Origin: Thermoanaerobaculia bacterium
GTDB lineage: Bacteria > Acidobacteriota > Thermoanaerobaculia > UBA5066
Direction: 5' to 3'
DNA: 64,000 nt
NCBI GenBank assembly: GCA_963719225.1
Contig: CAVRAY010000001.1
Span: 1,792,001-1,856,000 of the forward strand
Below are positions 11,825 through 18,492 of this stretch, piece by piece. Each line of letters starts with the position of its first letter. Positions within the stretch are counted from its first letter, which is position 1. The notes under the pieces are model-generated. The model ran no database searches. It worked only from the letters and a program-made list of their open reading frames with translations, and was not told the origin of the DNA. The position numbers and the translations under genes were made by a program.

Positions 11825-12172
11825 CTACGGCGACAAGACTCGTCGAAGCAACGACTCGAGCGCGAGACGGTCCAGCTTCTCCAATCGTCCGAGCCTTCGC
11901 AGGCGGAGACTCTTCTCGAAGGTCGCCAGGACGGGCTTGATCGTGGAAGGGCCGATCAGGCCGGCCTTCTTCCACCCCGTGATGGGGAGATGGAAGCCCG
12001 AGTCTCTCTGCACCTGGCTCGTGATGGCCATCAGTACGATGTCGGGAAGATTCTGGTTGCAGGCGGCCGAACTGACCACGACCGCGGGGCGGCGCTTGGT
12101 GCCGGCCTGATTCGTGAACGGGAAGGGGACCAGGACGATGTCGCCGAACTCAAAGCTTGTCGTAGGCGGCAT
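11825..12172 (-). CDS. PemK/MazF-family toxin
   Basis: GDIVLVPFPFT...KRRPAVVVS...MAITS signature. Confidence 0.9.
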   Translation of the reverse strand: MPPTTSFEFGDIVLVPFPFTNQAGTKRRPAVVVSSAACNQNLPDIVLMAITSQVQRDSGFHLPITGWKKAGLIGPSTIKPVLATFEKSLRLRRLGRLEKLDRLALESLLRRVLSP

Positions 12173-12371
12173 CGATCGGGTTGTCCCACACGCGGCGGAA
12201 CGAGGGCTCCGACATCTTCAGGGCAGCGCGCCGAAGCTTGTCGTCCTCGTTTTTCTGCCGGAGGAAGTCGACGAAGTCCTCCACCTCGGTCAGCCTCTCG
12301 GGAGGAAGCTCTCGGAGTTTGTCGTCGAGCGACGGCGGCCGGGGAGCACGGGAGTTGACGGCTTTCTTCAT
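12150..12371 (-). CDS. Putative antitoxin (DUF2281-like)
   Basis: LPPERLTEVEDFVDFL and C-terminal WDNP.DAAYD; overlaps toxin start. Confidence 0.8.
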   Translation of the reverse strand: MKKAVNSRAPRPPSLDDKLRELPPERLTEVEDFVDFLRQKNEDDKLRRAALKMSEPSFRRVWDNPIDAAYDKL

Positions 12372-12434: not shown

Positions 12435-13946
12435 TCACTGCCGGCGCACGAAGCTCCAGAATTCCTTTTCGAGGGACTTCGTATCCGTGCCGAGGGCGGC
12501 AGCGAGTGCGTCGAGGCCCGCGGGCGCGCCGAGTGCCGCGGCGCGGAGGAAGACGCGGAAACGTTCCGTGCGCGCCGGATCCCCGCCGAGAAGGAAGCGG
12601 ACGAGGAGACCGGCCTGGGTGTAAGCGTCGCGCCGCGTGCGGGCGTGGGCGAAAAGACGGGTGGCTCGCTCGAGCACCCCGGAGAGGGGCAGTCCGCGGC
12701 CAGCACGAACGCGCTCGAGGAACTCCTTCACCGTGGCGCGGGAACCTGACGAGACGCGCACCACGCGGTCGCCCGTTTTCCGTTCCGACGTGACCGAGTC
12801 GAGAGTTCCGCTCAGGAGCCGGCCCTCCGCGTCCGCCCGGCACCACGCGAGATCTTCCGACAGGCCTTCGGCGATCCACGGCGGGGCCTCCCGCGCGAAG
12901 ACCTCCTGCGACAGGAGGTGCGCCAGCTCGTGTACGACGGTCTGCCGCGTCTCTTCGGCCGTGAGTCCGGCCAGCGCCGCGGCGATTCCGCCGCCCGCGT
13001 GCCCGCGCGTGTCGAGAGTCTCGGGATCCGACCGCGGCACGTGCACGCCCTCCACCCAGACGATGCGCTGCCGGTCCACGAGGGCCGTGAGCCGCCTCGT
13101 GGCTTCTTCGAACGCCTTTGGTCCCGAGACGTCCGTCGCGTCGGACGCTTTTCCCCATGCCGCGGCTTCGGCCGCTCCGGTGCCGACGGTCCAGATGAGG
13201 AGCGGCACGCGGAGGCACCCGAGGAAGTTCCGGGCGGCCGGGGCCGGGAGCCGGCTGGCGTCCTTCGAGCCCGCGAGCAGCAGAACGACCGCTCGCGGAC
13301 GGCTGTTCGCCGAGACATCGAGGCCCGCGACCGCCACGGCGTCGGCGAAGCGGCGCTCCTCCGGCAGGCCGGGCGGGAAGACGCGCCTTCGTCGAGAACG
13401 ACCGAGATTTCGCCGGATCCCTCTTCCGACGCGACGACCTTCAAGGGAGCGCCGTTGGCGAGAAACCAGCCGCCCATCTCGCTTGCAGAGGGCAGCTTCT
13501 TCTTCTCGAAGAGGATCGGCACGGCGGTCAGTTCGGCCTGTGTCTGGTCGCGATTGAGGCCTCCGAACGTGATCTCCGCGGAGGTGGAGGTTTGTCCGGG
13601 AAACTCCAGCTCGGCCCGCAGGAAGTGGAGCTGCTCTGGGACGAACGCGGGAAGCGCGATCCGGGAAGGGTCGAGAGCGAAGCCTCGGCCAGGGACCGCT
13701 GGAGTTGATCTTCTGCAAGGTCTTTCCGATTTCCACGCCGGAGGCGTCGAAAGCGGTCGCTTCGAGGTGGTGAGGCACCGGCGAGGGACCGAAATCGACG
13801 TCGATCCGCCAGGGCTCGCCGCGGAGGCGGCCCAGCATCCGGCCGTCCAGTCGGACCTCGACGGCCGCGACCTCCTTCTCGACGGCCAACTCAACCGGAT
13901 GGACACCGCTGACGAGACCCAGGAAGATGGAGATAAACGTCAGCAT
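12435..13946 (-). pseudogene. Hypothetical protein with two compensating frame changes, fused to an HExxH peptidase-like C-terminal segment
   Basis: Protein-like sequence in the 12435..14027 frame to about 13700, then in the 12812..13906 frame (DPSRIALP...EISVVLDEGA), back to the first frame near 13385; VVHELAHLL near the C-terminus. Confidence 0.6.
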
Positions 13947-14020
13947 CCCGGCCAGATACTCATTTTCTGAGAAATCTTCATTTCCGGGGCCTGATTCATC
14001 CTCATCAGTCGTTTTTTCTC

Positions 14021-14050
14021 TTGACACACCTCATTCGTGAAACAATTCAT
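14021..14050 (+). promoter_or_regulatory. Possible sigma70 promoter of the ECF operon
   Basis: Perfect TTGACA at 14021-14026 in an AT-rich stretch; the -10 element is weak. Confidence 0.35.
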
Positions 14051-14114
14051 CCAGGTTCAACTAGGAGTACCAGACCCGTGGTCCACGCGGGCGCGGTTCC
14101 TCCAGGAGTCGTCC

Positions 14115-14741
14115 ATGGCAACGTGGGACACGACGGAAGGCATGGGGCTGACGCCGGCACTCGCTGGTGGTGGTTCGATGGCTGAAGCGTCGGTCCTGCG
14201 CGCCGTTCTCTCAGACGAGCTTCCCGTATCGGACGACGTCTCTTCGGAAGCCGCGGGCATCACTCCCGGAGAGTGGGACTGGACCGCGCTGAACAACGTG
14301 CTCCGCCCCAAGCTGATCGGCCTCGCGGTGAGGAAGTACAACTTCAGCCGCGAAGAGGCGGAAGACGCGGTTCAGACCGTCTACATGCGCGTTCTCGCGC
14401 GTGATCCGCGCGTCAAGGACCCGATCGGCTACGTGAAGATTGCGTTCCTCAACACCTGCCTGAACATTGCGATGGCGAAAGAGCGCAGCGTCCAGCAGAT
14501 GCCGGAAGAGATGGACGTGGCCGACCCGAAATGCGAGAAGGTCACGGCGCGCCTCGAGGCCGTGCGCATGGTCAACAAGGCCATCCGCAGTGCCGGGCCG
14601 AAGTGCAAGCGCATCGTGCGGCTCTACTTCGGGCAGGAATACAGCCTGGCCGACATGACGAAGGCCACGGGCTACTCCAAGAAGACCGTGTGGAAGCGCA
14701 TCTGGGGCTGCCTCGACAAGATGCGTAAGGTGCTCGCGTGA
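14115..14741 (+). CDS. ECF-type RNA polymerase sigma factor with an acidic N-terminal extension
   Basis: Region 2 EEAEDAVQTVY; region 4 YSLADMTKATGYSKKTVWKRIWGCLDKMR; AGGAG SD at 14104-14108 before ATG 14115. Confidence 0.85.
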   Translation: MATWDTTEGMGLTPALAGGGSMAEASVLRAVLSDELPVSDDVSSEAAGITPGEWDWTALNNVLRPKLIGLAVRKYNFSREEAEDAVQTVYMRVLARDPRVKDPIGYVKIAFLNTCLNIAMAKERSVQQMPEEMDVADPKCEKVTARLEAVRMVNKAIRSAGPKCKRIVRLYFGQEYSLADMTKATGYSKKTVWKRIWGCLDKMRKVLA

Positions 14742-16174
14742 GCGCGGAGCTCCGGGCTGTGTCTTCGCACCCCGAGCAGTGGGAGCTCTTCGAGCTCGTG
14801 ACCGAAGGCTCGACCGAGCTGAATGCGCACGTGAAGGCGCACGTCGTCGCCGGCTGCCCGTCGTGCGGCAAGCACCTCGACGACATCCGCACGCTCTCGA
14901 GGGCGCGCGAGATGAAGGAAGAGTTCGACGCCTTCTTCGACGAGCTGCCCCAGGACGACGCCCCGCCCTCCGAGCGCGAGGAGTTCCTCCTCAAGTTCAA
15001 GAAGAAGAACCGCCCCGCCGACCGCCTCGGCCGCCTCTCCCACGACGGCCGCCAGCTCGCGGCGGAAATCGTGAAGGCGGTTTCGGAAGAAGGGCTCGAC
15101 AAGGCGAAGGAGCTGCTTGGGAAGATCGAAGCGGACCCGAGCCGCGGGTACGCGTACCTGTATGCATGCCAGCTTGCAGCGCCGAAAGCTTCCAGTAATC
15201 CTGCGATGTATGTTGAGTTCGCAAAGTGTGTCGCAGAGTCCACGCGTAGCCTTCCCTATCTCGTTGAAAAGGGGCCAGCTCAACCCGTGTGCCGCGAACA
15301 GGTGCTCGGAGAGGCCGGGCTTTTGGAGTCAAACGCTCTGAACTTCCTCGGAGAGCCAACCGCAGCGCGAAAGGCGGCACAAAAAGCGCGCCTGAGTTTC
15401 GTCGAGGCCAACGAGGACAGTTTCGCTCTCGCGCTTGTGGATTATTTCGAAGGGTCAGCGGCCACGTTCGAGGGCGACTTCAATGCAGCCTGGAAGCTCT
15501 TGAAGGCCGCGCGTGCGGAGTTCCAGATCTTTGGGCAGGAGAACTGGCAGGGCCGAAGCGACGCCTCACTCGGAACGGTGATGCTCGGTAGGGGCAAGAA
15601 CGAGTCGGCCGTGTATTTCTTCGAAAGTGCGTTGCGGAACCTCCATCCGGTACTCGACGAAGCAGCTTACGCGAATACGGTGATCAACCGCGGTGCTTCG
15701 CTGGTGAGTCTCGGCCGCCTGGACGCGGCGAAGTCTGCTTTCGCCAAGGGCCTCGTGTTTGCTCGTCGCCTGAATCTCAAGGTCGGGCTCTTCATCATTC
15801 GTTACGGTCTTGCGACAATCGAGCTGCTCCGGAATCATCCTACGAAGGCGTTGGACCTCTTCCAGCGAATTCGCGAGGATGCGAGACGCGAAGGCTTCTC
15901 CGCGCGTGTCCTCTCGGCTGATCTTCGGATCGCCGAGTGCCTGGGTCGACTTGGACGTGCCGAAGAGATGACCGAGTGCTTGAGCGAACTCCGTAATTCG
16001 GAGTTGATAGGTGTTGCGGGCTTTGATTCAGGCCTCCGTGAGCTCTTCGCTACCGTGGATCAGGAAGCGGTTTCGACCGATCTTCTGGCGCATGTCGCCC
16101 GGTTCGTTGAGGGCCACGATCGCGGTTCGCGCGCTGCTTACAAACCATACCGTCTGGTTGCGAACGGAAGTTGA
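14738..16174 (+). CDS. Soluble zinc-binding anti-sigma (ZAS) domain fused to TPR-like helical repeats
   Basis: H...HVVAGCPSC motif; repeated TPR-like helices (ALVDYFEG, SDASLGTV, TVINRGAS, IRYGLATI); GTGA overlap with the sigma stop; no obvious TM helix. Confidence 0.8.
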   Translation: MSAELRAVSSHPEQWELFELVTEGSTELNAHVKAHVVAGCPSCGKHLDDIRTLSRAREMKEEFDAFFDELPQDDAPPSEREEFLLKFKKKNRPADRLGRLSHDGRQLAAEIVKAVSEEGLDKAKELLGKIEADPSRGYAYLYACQLAAPKASSNPAMYVEFAKCVAESTRSLPYLVEKGPAQPVCREQVLGEAGLLESNALNFLGEPTAARKAAQKARLSFVEANEDSFALALVDYFEGSAATFEGDFNAAWKLLKAARAEFQIFGQENWQGRSDASLGTVMLGRGKNESAVYFFESALRNLHPVLDEAAYANTVINRGASLVSLGRLDAAKSAFAKGLVFARRLNLKVGLFIIRYGLATIELLRNHPTKALDLFQRIREDARREGFSARVLSADLRIAECLGRLGRAEEMTECLSELRNSELIGVAGFDSGLRELFATVDQEAVSTDLLAHVARFVEGHDRGSRAAYKPYRLVANGS

Positions 16175-16251
16175 TCGTTCTCTAAACATCGTTCATAGAC
16201 AGGGGGCCGAGGTGCCATGAACCGGGTACCTCACATGATTTCTTTTAAGAG

Positions 16252-16295
16252 GGGGGTCAAAGGTGTGCCCCCGTCTGTCCGTGTATATAGCCCAC
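16252..16295 (+). promoter_or_regulatory. ECF-type promoter motif, copy 1
   Basis: GGGGGTCAAAG-N12-CTGTCC-N8-AGCCCAC, repeated with identical spacing at 16627-16670. Confidence 0.7.
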
Positions 16296-16361
16296 AGCTG
16301 GACAACCACAGCACTAACCAATTGTTGGTGATCCGTTAGCGCGGAGCACCAGGAGGACGTA

Positions 16362-16487
16362 ATGAGAGAGTTCGATTGTGAGTTCAGCTTGTTTTCATAT
16401 TTCATTGATCTACTTGGACTTAAGGGTAGTTCCTCGGAGGACGCGTCCGGCACGTGCAACATCAACGCCGGACCCATCGGCGCCTGA
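16362..16487 (+). CDS. 41-aa small peptide MREFDCEFSLFSYFIDLLGLKGSSSEDASGTCNINAGPIGA
   Basis: AGGAGG at 16351-16356, 5 nt before ATG; downstream of promoter copy 1; followed by hairpins; below the ORF-track cutoff. Confidence 0.75.
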   Translation: MREFDCEFSLFSYFIDLLGLKGSSSEDASGTCNINAGPIGA

Positions 16488-16511
16488 CAACTAATTCCCA
16501 ATAACTAACCA

Positions 16512-16569
16512 ACAGGCTGGCTTGGCTAGCCCTGTGCAAGGTGTGTTTGCGCGTGAAATCGCGCGTTTT
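16512..16569 (+). terminator. Hairpins downstream of the peptide gene (possible terminator)
   Basis: ACAGGCTGGC-TTG-GCTAGCCCTGT (16512-16535), then GCGCG-TGAAAT-CGCGC-GTTTT. Confidence 0.4.
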
Positions 16570-16626
16570 CGTGTTCTTGGCTGGTCAGTGCCCCGAATTG
16601 GGTACTCGAAAAAAAATCTTTGGTAA

Positions 16627-16670
16627 GGGGGTCAAAGCTGCGTGGCGGCCTGTCCTTACTATTAGCCCAC
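16627..16670 (+). promoter_or_regulatory. ECF-type promoter motif, copy 2
   Basis: Same three blocks and spacings as copy 1, 375 bp downstream, with an A-tract upstream. Confidence 0.7.
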
Positions 16671-16739
16671 CCTTAGACGAACCCTCGCCCAAGCTGGTGG
16701 ACATTCGAGCAAATGAAGCCGCTGGTTCCCCTTGGCCGC

Positions 16740-16865
16740 TCACGCCGGCGCCGAGGCGGATGTCTCCGCCCCTCGCCCCGCGTACCGCGCGATGCCGTTT
16801 CCGAACGACCAGCTCTCCTTCGGGACCTCGACGAGGTTCACGAGGACGTCCTCTTCCCTGAACCC
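16740..16865 (-). pseudogene. 3' remnant of a tautomerase-family gene
   Basis: Manual translation: REEDVLVNLVEVPKESWSFGNGIARYA...stop; catalytic Pro1 N-terminus missing. Confidence 0.7.
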
Positions 16866-16927
16866 AGCGTAAACGCCCCCACGGTCCGATACGATCCAGC
16901 GACCGCCAGCGCGTATCATCGCTTTGG

Positions 16928-17170
16928 ATGCCGACCGTTCTTCGAGATGGTCCCTGGCGCTTCTACTTCTTTAGTCACGAACCGAATGAACCTCCTCACA
17001 TCCACGTTGACCGCGATGATTTGTCGGCCAAGTTCTGGCTCGGACCAGTGGCTCTCGCACGTAATTTCGGATTCAGTGCGAACGAGTTGCGACGGCTCGA
17101 GGCAATCGTGAGGGAGCGCGAAACGTCTTTCCTGGAGGCATGGTATGGGTATTTTGGCCAGCAGCTCTGA
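16928..17170 (+). CDS. DUF4160-family putative toxin
   Basis: MPTVLR.GPWRFYFFSHEPNEPPHIHV...AKFWL. Confidence 0.88.
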   Translation: MPTVLRDGPWRFYFFSHEPNEPPHIHVDRDDLSAKFWLGPVALARNFGFSANELRRLEAIVRERETSFLEAWYGYFGQQL

Positions 17171-17414
17171 CGAACGAGTCACGGGAGTGAGCGTGACGGA
17201 CGATGCCCTCACTGTGTCGCTCGGCGACGGTCGCGTGATTTCCGTGCCTTTGGCATGGTATCCGCGCCTTCTTCACGCGACGGTCGATCAGCGCGCGCGC
17301 TGGCAGGTGAGCGCAGGTGGGTATGGTATCCACTGGCCAGAGATCGATGAAGACCTCTCGGTCGAGGGGCTTCTCAGGGGCGCTCCGGCTCCGCGAACGA
17401 CCGTGAAGGTCTAG
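17145..17414 (+). CDS. DUF2442-family putative antitoxin
   Basis: L.DGR.ISVPLAWYPRL, GIHWPEIDEDLSVEGLL. Confidence 0.88.
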   Translation: MGILASSSDERVTGVSVTDDALTVSLGDGRVISVPLAWYPRLLHATVDQRARWQVSAGGYGIHWPEIDEDLSVEGLLRGAPAPRTTVKV

Positions 17415-17825: not shown

Positions 17826-18254
17826 TCACGCGAACGGATTCCGAACGCGAATCGCTCCGAACGACTGCCCGGCGTTGAGGTCTTCCGACCAGATCGTCGC
17901 GCAGCGGAGCTGGCTGGCGCTCTGCAAGATGAGGGCGTCCCAGAGGGAGATACGTTTCTTTCGATGGAGGTCGATGGCCGCGAGGACGTCCGCGCGAACG
18001 GGTTCGTGAAGAGTCCATTGCGAAAGGTCCTCGATCAGCGCGGCGGCTCCCGCTGCCGGCATCGGCTTCGACACCTTGCGGGTGATCGTGACGTAGAGCT
18101 CCTGCAGGACCTGAAGGCTGAGACAGCCCTGCCCGGAGCGCCACAGGCCGGCGACGAGCTCGCGTGCCTGCTCAGCTTTGGCCCCTGCGCCTCCGTCGTA
18201 GGCGTAAACCAGGACGTTCGTGTCGACGAATTCCCGGACCGGTTCAGCGCTCAT
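17826..18254 (-). CDS. PIN-domain (VapC-like) toxin
   Basis: FVDTNVLVYA, QVLQE, SLWDALI, WSEDL. Confidence 0.9.
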   Translation of the reverse strand: MSAEPVREFVDTNVLVYAYDGGAGAKAEQARELVAGLWRSGQGCLSLQVLQELYVTITRKVSKPMPAAGAAALIEDLSQWTLHEPVRADVLAAIDLHRKKRISLWDALILQSASQLRCATIWSEDLNAGQSFGAIRVRNPFA

Positions 18255-18492
18255 GGAGCGAGCCGCGGGTCCACGTGACCTGGCCCCGTGTGCCGAGGTT
18301 CAGAGGCCGCTTCAGCCGCGCGAGCGCGCGCTCGCGAGCCGCGGCATAAGCGTCCTCACGCTCGACGATCTCTTCCAGCATTCCGGCGAGAAGGGCCGAG
18401 ACGGAGGTCTGCCGCTCGACCGCGAGGATCTTCACCTTCCTGAGAACGGGCTTCGGAAGCGCGAGCGTGATGTTCTGGATGGGCTCTTTCAC
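18244..18492 (-). CDS. RHH-type antitoxin
   Basis: QNITLALPK.VL.KVK..A....SVSALL; C-terminal WTR.SLHER; overlaps the PIN gene. Confidence 0.82.
   Translation of the reverse strand: MKEPIQNITLALPKPVLRKVKILAVERQTSVSALLAGMLEEIVEREDAYAAARERALARLKRPLNLGTRGQVTWTRGSLHER

Follow-up and report, generated by a model that had tools for sequence, protein, structure and literature searches.

The stretch of DNA analysed here (the window: 64,000 nt, positions 1,792,001 to 1,856,000 of contig CAVRAY010000001.1, assembly GCA_963719225.1) comes from a Thermoanaerobaculia bacterium of the phylum Acidobacteriota. It hosts a module made of a sigma factor of the extracytoplasmic function (ECF) type, a soluble receptor joining a zinc anti-sigma (ZAS) domain to a tetratricopeptide repeat (TPR) superhelix, and a small peptide precursor. 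The module is real and conserved, and probably undescribed; on balance, it seems to act as an auto-inducing switch, in which the peptide would free the ECF sigma factor held by the ZAS-TPR receptor. The sigma gene (14115..14741, + strand) has an ATG start and encodes 208 aa. The receptor gene (14738..16174, +; 478 aa) begins with GTG, and sigma stop and receptor start overlap as GTGA (14738-14741). The ZAS domain, of the His-His-Cys-Cys (HHCC) type, corresponds to receptor residues 1-70 (14738..14947, +), the TPR superhelix, including a predicted peptide groove, to residues ~93-478 (15014..16174, +). After a gap of 187 nt, a precursor of 41 aa is encoded at 16362..16487 (+). The ribosome-binding site AGGAGG (16351..16356, +), located 5 nt before the peptide ATG, is kept in orthologues. 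The precursor includes an acidic, amphipathic, Phe-rich leader, a Ser/Gly spacer and a C-terminal signal unit, and ends with INAGPIGA; the 7-8 residues INAGPIG(A), encoded at 16461..16484 (+), are predicted to form the mature peptide. The coupling of an ECF sigma to a soluble ZAS-TPR gene, followed by the 41-aa open reading frame (ORF) with its AGGAGG, had been noticed in a preliminary description made from the letters alone, and is borne out by coordinates, 4-bp overlap and domain matches. The closest named relatives of the locus are metagenome-assembled genomes of Thermoanaerobaculia (12 loci, 60-86% identity).

The occurrence of a peptide gene next to the receptor is a conserved trait. Receptor loci, made non-redundant and having 400 nt or more of downstream sequence, were scored for an ORF of 6-130 aa, preceded by a ribosome site and ending with P-[IVL]-x(1-2) or T/S-T/S-IGG. 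Such an ORF was found in 88 of 127 loci, versus 18 of the 1,686 control windows placed behind long ORFs of this genome. The distribution by lineage is uneven: 86 of 107 loci in the order to which the genome belongs passed the rule, 2 of 20 outside it. When the rule was applied unchanged to 20 held-out regions, 13 out of 17 scorable loci passed, one being a repeat of L009. The downstream small ORF anticipated at homologous loci is hence found in both samples. Sec-like ORFs of 53-75 aa, whose Pro-rich tails follow a different pattern, occur in three of the four held-out misses (family f2), and in many of the misses from other orders; other misses are frameshifted loci, near misses, and second receptors lacking a peptide gene. 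In the genome under study, a similar tail marks just 3 of 1,400 small-ORF candidates with a ribosome site, two of which are the window peptide and the peptide of a paralogous locus.

Precursors are informative on the size of the signal. Tandem terminal units are present in 15 of 77 same-strand precursors, and the unit measures 7 residues in 12 of the 15. Comparison of adjacent units gives 39 synonymous and 6 non-synonymous codon differences, and 44 of 50 base changes fall at third positions; judged from codon usage of this kind, the tandem heptamers are under purifying selection. The length of the units suggests that the mature peptide is about 7-8 residues long. The L088 precursor carries three repeats of INAGPIG, the heptamer predicted for the window. 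Peptides fall in distinct length classes (n=89): 45 are 25-56 aa long, 19 measure 17-21 aa, 13 do not exceed 10 aa (7-10), and 12 measure 75-99 aa. The 75-99-aa precursors have a basic, hydrophobic Sec-like start; Sec-like precursors of sister clades have been recognized by charge and hydropathy only. The shortest ORFs are leaderless, as MPNGPIPS. In genus g10 and at L082 the peptide gene lies on the opposite strand, faces the receptor and has its own promoter. Precursor types map onto receptor clades in a FastTree phylogeny of 121 TPR domains. None of 19 precursors searched against NCBIfam matched a named family.

A few additional observations concern the peptide region. An ORF of 40-44 aa spanning the upstream motif (16217-16339) was considered and discarded as incidental, being kept only where promoter DNA is kept. 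Peptide ORFs look frameshifted at L010/L168, L169 and L173, and signal-null "cheaters" are possible; at L010, where the receptor is split too, an assembly error is likely. A recurrent leader hairpin, AGGCGG ... GAGCGCTC ... CCGCCT, is found between promoter and ribosome site at L041, L045, L057, L092-L099 and L141-L144, and a related sequence, GAGGGCGCCCTC, in family f5. The leader hairpin may represent a conserved RNA element.

The peptide gene is preceded by the motif GGGTCAAA-N13-CTGTC (copy 1, 16254..16279, +). A second copy (16629..16654, +) is found downstream, the motif occurring twice as the preliminary description had it, and the 44-nt direct repeat carrying the two copies (16252-16295; 16627-16670) flanks the peptide ORF. 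In the general form GGGTCAAA-N13-14-YTGTC, the motif is present in 1-4 copies in 28 of 29 genomes of the genus, the reversed-pattern control giving 0. Its core occurs three times in the 4.75-Mb genome under study, the third time before the paralogous peptide gene, and the reversed pattern again gave 0. There are 36 copies in the 30 loci fetched. An intact peptide ORF follows 22 of them and an apparently frameshifted one another 3; 7 more are second copies like that of the window, and the last 4 are located away from receptors. The motif thus accompanies homologous loci, as had been proposed. Second copies occur in 7 of 16 window-clade loci, and the DNA downstream of them is not conserved. In the window no ribosome-site ORF lies behind copy 2, which may drive a non-coding or antisense transcript, or be a leftover. 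Other clades exhibit other element pairs with similar spacing, and the recognition helix in region 4 of sigma changes with them: KTVWKRI is found in 20 of 24 loci with type-A motifs, PAVWKR[IL] in 11 of 11 with type-B motifs. On these sequence patterns, the motif is likely to be the -35/-10 promoter used by the window sigma.

A matrix scan of the genome for a wider regulon detected only the two window copies, and missed the paralog copy with its 14-nt spacer; a relaxed scan of the genome found no further motif site followed by a ribosome-site ORF besides the paralog. Remote copies, each seen in one genome, precede genes for an RHS/YD protein whose tip is weakly SitA6-like (L163/L180), a lipoprotein (L155), a Cys-rich exported-looking protein (L172) and a ceramidase-like lipoprotein (L175); these proteins are possible outputs of sigma. 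The idea that the motif is an antisense sigma-70 promoter (TTGACC, minus strand) was dropped by eye, the -10 box not being at a fixed distance.

At its N-terminus the receptor has the features of a class I ZAS domain ((H/C)-x23-26-H-x3-C-x2-C in a three-helix domain). The putative ligands are H11, H35, C40 and C43; in 45 aligned N-termini the last three are invariant, and H11 is almost so. A one-residue insertion gives the spacing H-x23-H-x4-C-x2-C in the window clade, x3 being found in most relatives. The profile of the N-terminal region matches RslA (2.2e-6), ChrR (2e-5), DdvA (2.2e-4) and RsiW (0.014), and the anti-sigma nature read from the zinc motif in the preliminary description is upheld by these matches. 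zf-HC2 is matched by 20 of the 45 N-termini; the window N-terminus, searched singly, gave no zf-HC2 match. The domain is modelled as three helices, and its fold weakly matches those of RslA (Z 5.1) and RsiW (Z 4.5); values obtained by fold searches with the ZAS domain alone (Z at most 5.2) are within noise. Full sigma genes are accompanied by a ZAS motif in 99 of 100 loci, and the ZAS domain is missing in 11 of the 12 loci in which sigma is cut after region 2. The two segments are adjacent, and single deletions can explain the joint loss; the pattern demonstrates shared fate, not binding. The 4-bp sigma/receptor overlap seen in the window is found in 72 of 100 full-sigma loci. Taken on its sequence, the ZAS domain very probably binds the sigma factor.

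The sigma factor is assigned to the ECF type by profile matches. The TIGR02937 (sigma70-ECF) cut-off is narrowly passed (43.4 versus 42.9 bits), and Pfam matches to regions 2 and 4 are weak. No other full-length member of the family is encoded in the genome, and the window sigma is therefore likely to serve both peptide genes. Three Cys residues are conserved in the family, C115 in 86% of members, C164 and C199 in 99-100%; they may form a disulfide or a metal site, and supply a second, redox input. C164 and C199 are reminiscent of M. tuberculosis SigK and its sigma-4 disulfide.

The remainder of the receptor matches TPR_12 above cut-off (E 2.7e-9). No transmembrane stretch was found in the 478 residues (highest 19-residue hydropathy 1.22), and no match to a CHAT domain. 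The model is all-helical over residues ~93-478 (pLDDT 92.8), and consists of about seven hairpins. Among RRNPP-type peptide receptors, it matches the fold of NprR-NprX (Z 19.8, root-mean-square deviation 6.0, 311 aligned residues), phage Rap (Z 19.5, 4.7, 310) and PlcR (Z 17.2, 3.4, 221). According to the TPR register, the conserved polar residues E192, Y236, R273, N317, E400 and R404 account for 6 of 36 concave positions, versus 10 of 168 others. Nine receptors searched against NCBIfam gave TPR matches below cut-off only; matches in the ESM Atlas are unnamed or TPR clusters, Acidobacteriota being commonest.

Receptor and peptide plausibly diverge together behind a nearly fixed sigma factor. 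Identity to 11 orthologues is 95-98% in the sigma core, 80-96% in the ZAS domain, 62-69% in the TPR domain and 38-62% in the C-terminal cap. G+C content at third codon positions drops from 0.84-0.97 to 0.66-0.79 at the border where TPR identity falls. All this would fit the exchange, as a cassette, of the receptor-peptide part. To measure covariation, groove identity was compared with peptide similarity, controlling for the rest of the domain, and 1,000 variability-matched random position sets provided the null. In the window clade (n=16) the groove-peptide partial r is 0.49, versus a null of 0.09 +/- 0.17, a value reached by 7 of the 1,000 sets. L088 and window receptors, which are paired with the same heptamer, share 92% of groove positions and 68% of other positions, and their sigma factors are just 87% identical. 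On the strength of covariation, binding of the peptide to the TPR domain is very likely. Another peptide is shared by L002 and L007.

The genome hosts a second locus (L179; C1:3074852-3076900), in which a sigma gene cut after region 2 is coupled to a TPR gene lacking the ZAS domain. The same motif precedes a 51-aa precursor with three ISSTPIG units. Eleven loci of this kind have been identified, and may act as peptide sinks or second channels. In the paralog clade terminator-like hairpins are found ahead of the peptide gene. In this clade the peptide gene is followed by a conserved ORF of about 136 aa (L149, L156, L018, L179; cluster of 21 loci); it has no match in Pfam or NCBIfam, and is likely a co-transcribed output.

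Receptors with two TPR domains are encoded at L085:1141-3825, L087:1485-4166, L091:6684-9374 and L102:109-2832. They are about 740-770 aa long, bear a ZAS domain, are coupled to a second, divergent sigma, and lack a peptide gene of their own; the main locus is a few kb away. The last-domain grooves at L085, L087 and L091 are 83-97% identical to receptors of the GTGPIGG type, versus 67-75% to their own neighbours. This suggests that two-domain receptors may listen to foreign signals, or that they were recently transferred. Up to three TPR domains are present in P0009.

Within the order, 97 of 175 genomes gave matches to the receptor, and within the class 67 of 151, with up to six matches per genome; tallies include one unpublished genome, G087, on which no other result depends. 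In 301 genomes of the phylum, among five scored candidates per genome, matches spanning both ZAS and TPR are found solely inside the class, and the others are partial TPR matches.

In the model proposed, sigma and receptor would be expressed in 1:1 stoichiometry as an operon from a housekeeping-type promoter, and the ZAS domain would sequester the co-translated sigma. The likely promoter, TTGACA ... TG-n-(A/C)A(C/G)AAT (14021..14046, +), lies upstream of the sigma gene, and is uncertain owing to its short spacer. TTGACA and the downstream AT-rich box are kept across divergent spacers in window-clade loci; a strict promoter scan did not pick up the element. The precursor would be cut after the Pro-Ile-Gly unit to give the 7-8-mer INAGPIG or INAGPIGA. 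The mature peptide, strain-specific and probably intercellular, would enter the TPR groove, and a change relayed to the ZAS domain would free sigma. Freed sigma would transcribe the peptide gene, closing an auto-inducing loop, and also a small, strain-variable set of exported proteins. Export and re-import of the peptide are probable. That the peptide releases sigma, rather than locking it, is somewhat favored by analogy with the Rap-Phr anti-activators. More tentatively, Thermoanaerobaculia may own a peptide quorum-sensing family in a double-membrane bacterium, in which diversified 7-8-residue pheromones, issued from Sec, non-Sec amphipathic or bare ORFs, would reach the cytoplasm and free an ECF sigma from its ZAS-TPR receptor; several channels per strain, cassette swaps and eavesdropping two-domain receptors would be part of the picture.

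Various points weigh against this model. The tail rule was drawn up after the first loci had been seen, which is why held-out regions were fetched and scored. Some receptors, two-domain ones and some second copies, have no adjoining peptide gene. No defined motif type fits 18 of 75 full-sigma loci, and the agreement between motif type and sigma helix is confounded by common descent. Groove positions were taken from the TPR register, not from coordinates, and groove covariation falls short of significance in the paralog clade (134 of 1,000 random sets did as well), in family f3 (427), or in all 88 loci (212). When window and paralog clades are pooled, 35 of 1,000 random sets did as well; since five sets were tested, the support given by covariation is real but confined to close relatives. 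The best fold matches of the receptor are generic eukaryotic TPR proteins (Pins Z 21.6, APPBP2 21.6, LGN 21.2), and in sequence rankings RapJ (2.7e-9) and RapF (7e-8) stand beneath designed TPRs, OGT and kinesin light chain. As modelled, the receptor looks like an RRNPP receptor no more than like other peptide-binding TPR proteins. Transport is the weak link of the mechanism. The genome encodes Omp85 proteins, and is therefore diderm. The window precursor lacks a basic Sec N-region, its start being amphipathic and acidic (charge -2 in residues 1-8). An OppC-type permease was not found in the 97%-complete genome, and no exporter or protease gene is present among the conserved neighbours of the locus. 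The genome has four OPT-family loci and one C39 peptidase locus, none of which is a recurrent neighbour of the module, and a PTR2 match below cut-off. The sole SBP_bac_5 matches (C1:1785803-1788118, 2094095-2095186) reside in open frames of ~1,900 codons, not in a classical opp operon.

The sign of the response could be the opposite. According to this hypothesis, as in arbitrium-like systems, the peptide-bound TPR domain would stabilize sequestration, and sigma, active at low density, would be shut off by the accumulated peptide. The peptide gene is wholly dependent on the motif at convergent loci (g10, L063-L072, L082) and behind the hairpins of the paralog clade, and there a fully sequestered sigma would need some leak to start a positive loop; receptors lacking the ZAS domain but retaining their own peptide genes point in the same direction. 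Yet, class I anti-sigma domains bind sigma ligand-free, as the passages of PMC11506125 on the DdvA N-terminus report, and the + strand of the window showed no terminator-like site in the interval separating receptor from peptide gene, so that read-through could prime a positive loop. The opposite sign is on the whole unlikely. Alternatively, the peptide could be a TPR ligand that never leaves the cell, serving a cell-autonomous bistable switch or timer. The leaderless 7-10-residue peptides (13 of 89), such as MPNGPIPS, the lack of a Sec signal in precursors of the window type, and the diderm genome (Omp85 matches) in which an Opp permease was not found would all suit such a loop. Sister clades, however, have Sec-type precursors with the same Pro-containing tail, and the fast paired divergence of peptide and TPR, as opposed to the fixed sigma, is hard to explain within one cell. 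In addition, two-domain receptors fit a foreign peptide type better than that of their own neighbour, and leaderless peptides of 8-10 residues are proven Opp-independent intercellular signals in Firmicutes, according to the part of PMC10518010 dealing with them. A purely intracellular loop seems, all considered, rather improbable.

The locus could finally be an ordinary stress-sensing ECF/ZAS pair, responding to redox or metals through the zinc site and the sigma Cys pair; the small ORF would then be a target with another job, for example a secreted or membrane-active product, and the TPR domain would bind another protein. ZAS domains do sense oxidants, as stated in the relevant passages of PMC11506125, C164 and C199 are almost invariant, and the TPR fold is generic. 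Stress sensing leaves unexplained, though, why the peptide gene stays adjacent despite being inverted at some loci, and despite the loss of sigma-4 and ZAS at others, why an identical heptamer is paired with a near-identical groove, and why tandem identical heptamers are under purifying selection. An ordinary stress sensor is improbable.

The module recalls RRNPP(A) systems such as Rap-Phr, NprR-NprX, PlcR-PapR and AimR-AimP. In both, a cytoplasmic TPR protein of 250-500 aa is followed by a small propeptide gene, the N-terminal effector domain is variable, the mature unit has 5-8 residues, precursor units may be repeated, and folds match at Z 17-20. The part of PMC10075063 describing a survey limited to Firmicutes lists five RRNPP criteria. 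The window module shares four of these features, having a propeptide within 10-100 aa (41 aa), a cytoplasmic receptor (478 aa), a TPR superhelix (5-9 tandem TPRs), and adjacent genes. As to the fifth, export by Sec (or by PptAB for SHP/PrgQ-type peptides), the window precursor has no Sec N-region, and precursors of sister clades are Sec-like. N-terminal domains of RRNPP receptors are either helix-turn-helix (HTH) or three-helix domains, as outlined in the pertinent section of PMC9765709. In contrast, the window receptor has a zinc anti-sigma domain as its effector, in place of an HTH or three-helix phosphatase domain, and the output is an ECF sigma. Differently from RRNPP(A) systems of Bacillota, the host is diderm, the window precursor lacks a Sec signal, and an Opp permease was not found. 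Because its effector domain is of another kind, and because shared ancestry is no more than possible, eukaryotic and designed TPRs scoring equal or higher, the module may work like RRNPP systems but is not classed among them.

Anti-sigma factors offer a second term of comparison. DdvA of Myxococcus xanthus is described in the corresponding passages of PMC11506125 as a transmembrane ZAS/TPR-CHAT anti-sigma. The window pair resembles DdvA-DdvS in having an N-terminal ZAS joined to a TPR sensor, an ECF sigma partner and a diderm host. In DdvA, the TPR-CHAT region is periplasmic and release occurs by proteolysis, whereas the window receptor is soluble and devoid of CHAT, and has a cognate peptide gene, none being described for DdvA in those passages. 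Class I anti-sigma factors such as RslA, ChrR and RsiW have the same HHCC ligands, three-helix N-terminal domain and overlap with the sigma gene, but their C-terminal sensor consists of a cupin, or of a membrane anchor bearing an outer domain, rather than a TPR superhelix of about seven repeats. As to the peptides, the 7-10-codon ORFs next to TPR receptors in family f3 resemble leaderless peptides of the RopB-SIP type, dealt with in part of PMC10518010, and the short hydrophobic non-Sec leader of the window type recalls SHP/ComS-type precursors. The leaderless peptides considered in that part of PMC10518010 are hydrophobic over their whole length and have Rgg-type HTH regulators as targets; the peptides described here have Pro-Ile-x tails and are encoded behind an anti-sigma.

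No soluble ZAS-TPR group appears in the main-text passages considered of the 2021 ECF classification (PMC7826278), or in 16 supplement passages mentioning "tetratricopeptide". Literature searches, whose coverage did not extend to bioRxiv supplements, found no paper describing such a sigma/ZAS-TPR/peptide system. Intracellular RRNPP-type peptide receptors are placed in Bacillota and their mobile elements in the relevant parts of PMC10075063, PMC9765709 and PMC10518010. If the model holds true, a ligand-gated soluble anti-sigma would represent a new mode of ECF control, in a diderm soil lineage, and a largely uncultured class would gain its first candidate social signal. The question of how a heptapeptide passes two membranes without Opp would arise as well. 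The likely mature peptide, the promoter, and natural cognate and non-cognate pairs have been identified, and the model is testable without culturing the host. Sets of sigma, receptor and peptide using different promoters could serve as orthogonal switches.

The surroundings of the module deserve mention. No Rfam match was obtained over 13900-17000, the region of motif copy 2 included. RNA runs matched at most 13% of words each; four of them correspond to contigs of relatives, mostly at 80-95% identity, and these four are uninformative on expression. The divergent upstream gene (12435-13948, -) encodes an exported-looking product with a weak Peptidase_MA match (HELAH); its homologues align in different frames, and the gene is hence frameshifted, by sequencing error or decay. 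Downstream, a tautomerase gene is reduced to its last 30 codons (16776-16865, -; 87% to L090), and a DUF4160/DUF2442 pair (16928-17414) occupies the place of the missing part. Toxin-antitoxin-like pairs border the module on either side, PemK/MazF with DUF2281 (11825-12371) and PIN with an RHH-like partner (17826-18492). The region around the module looks like an insertion hot spot.

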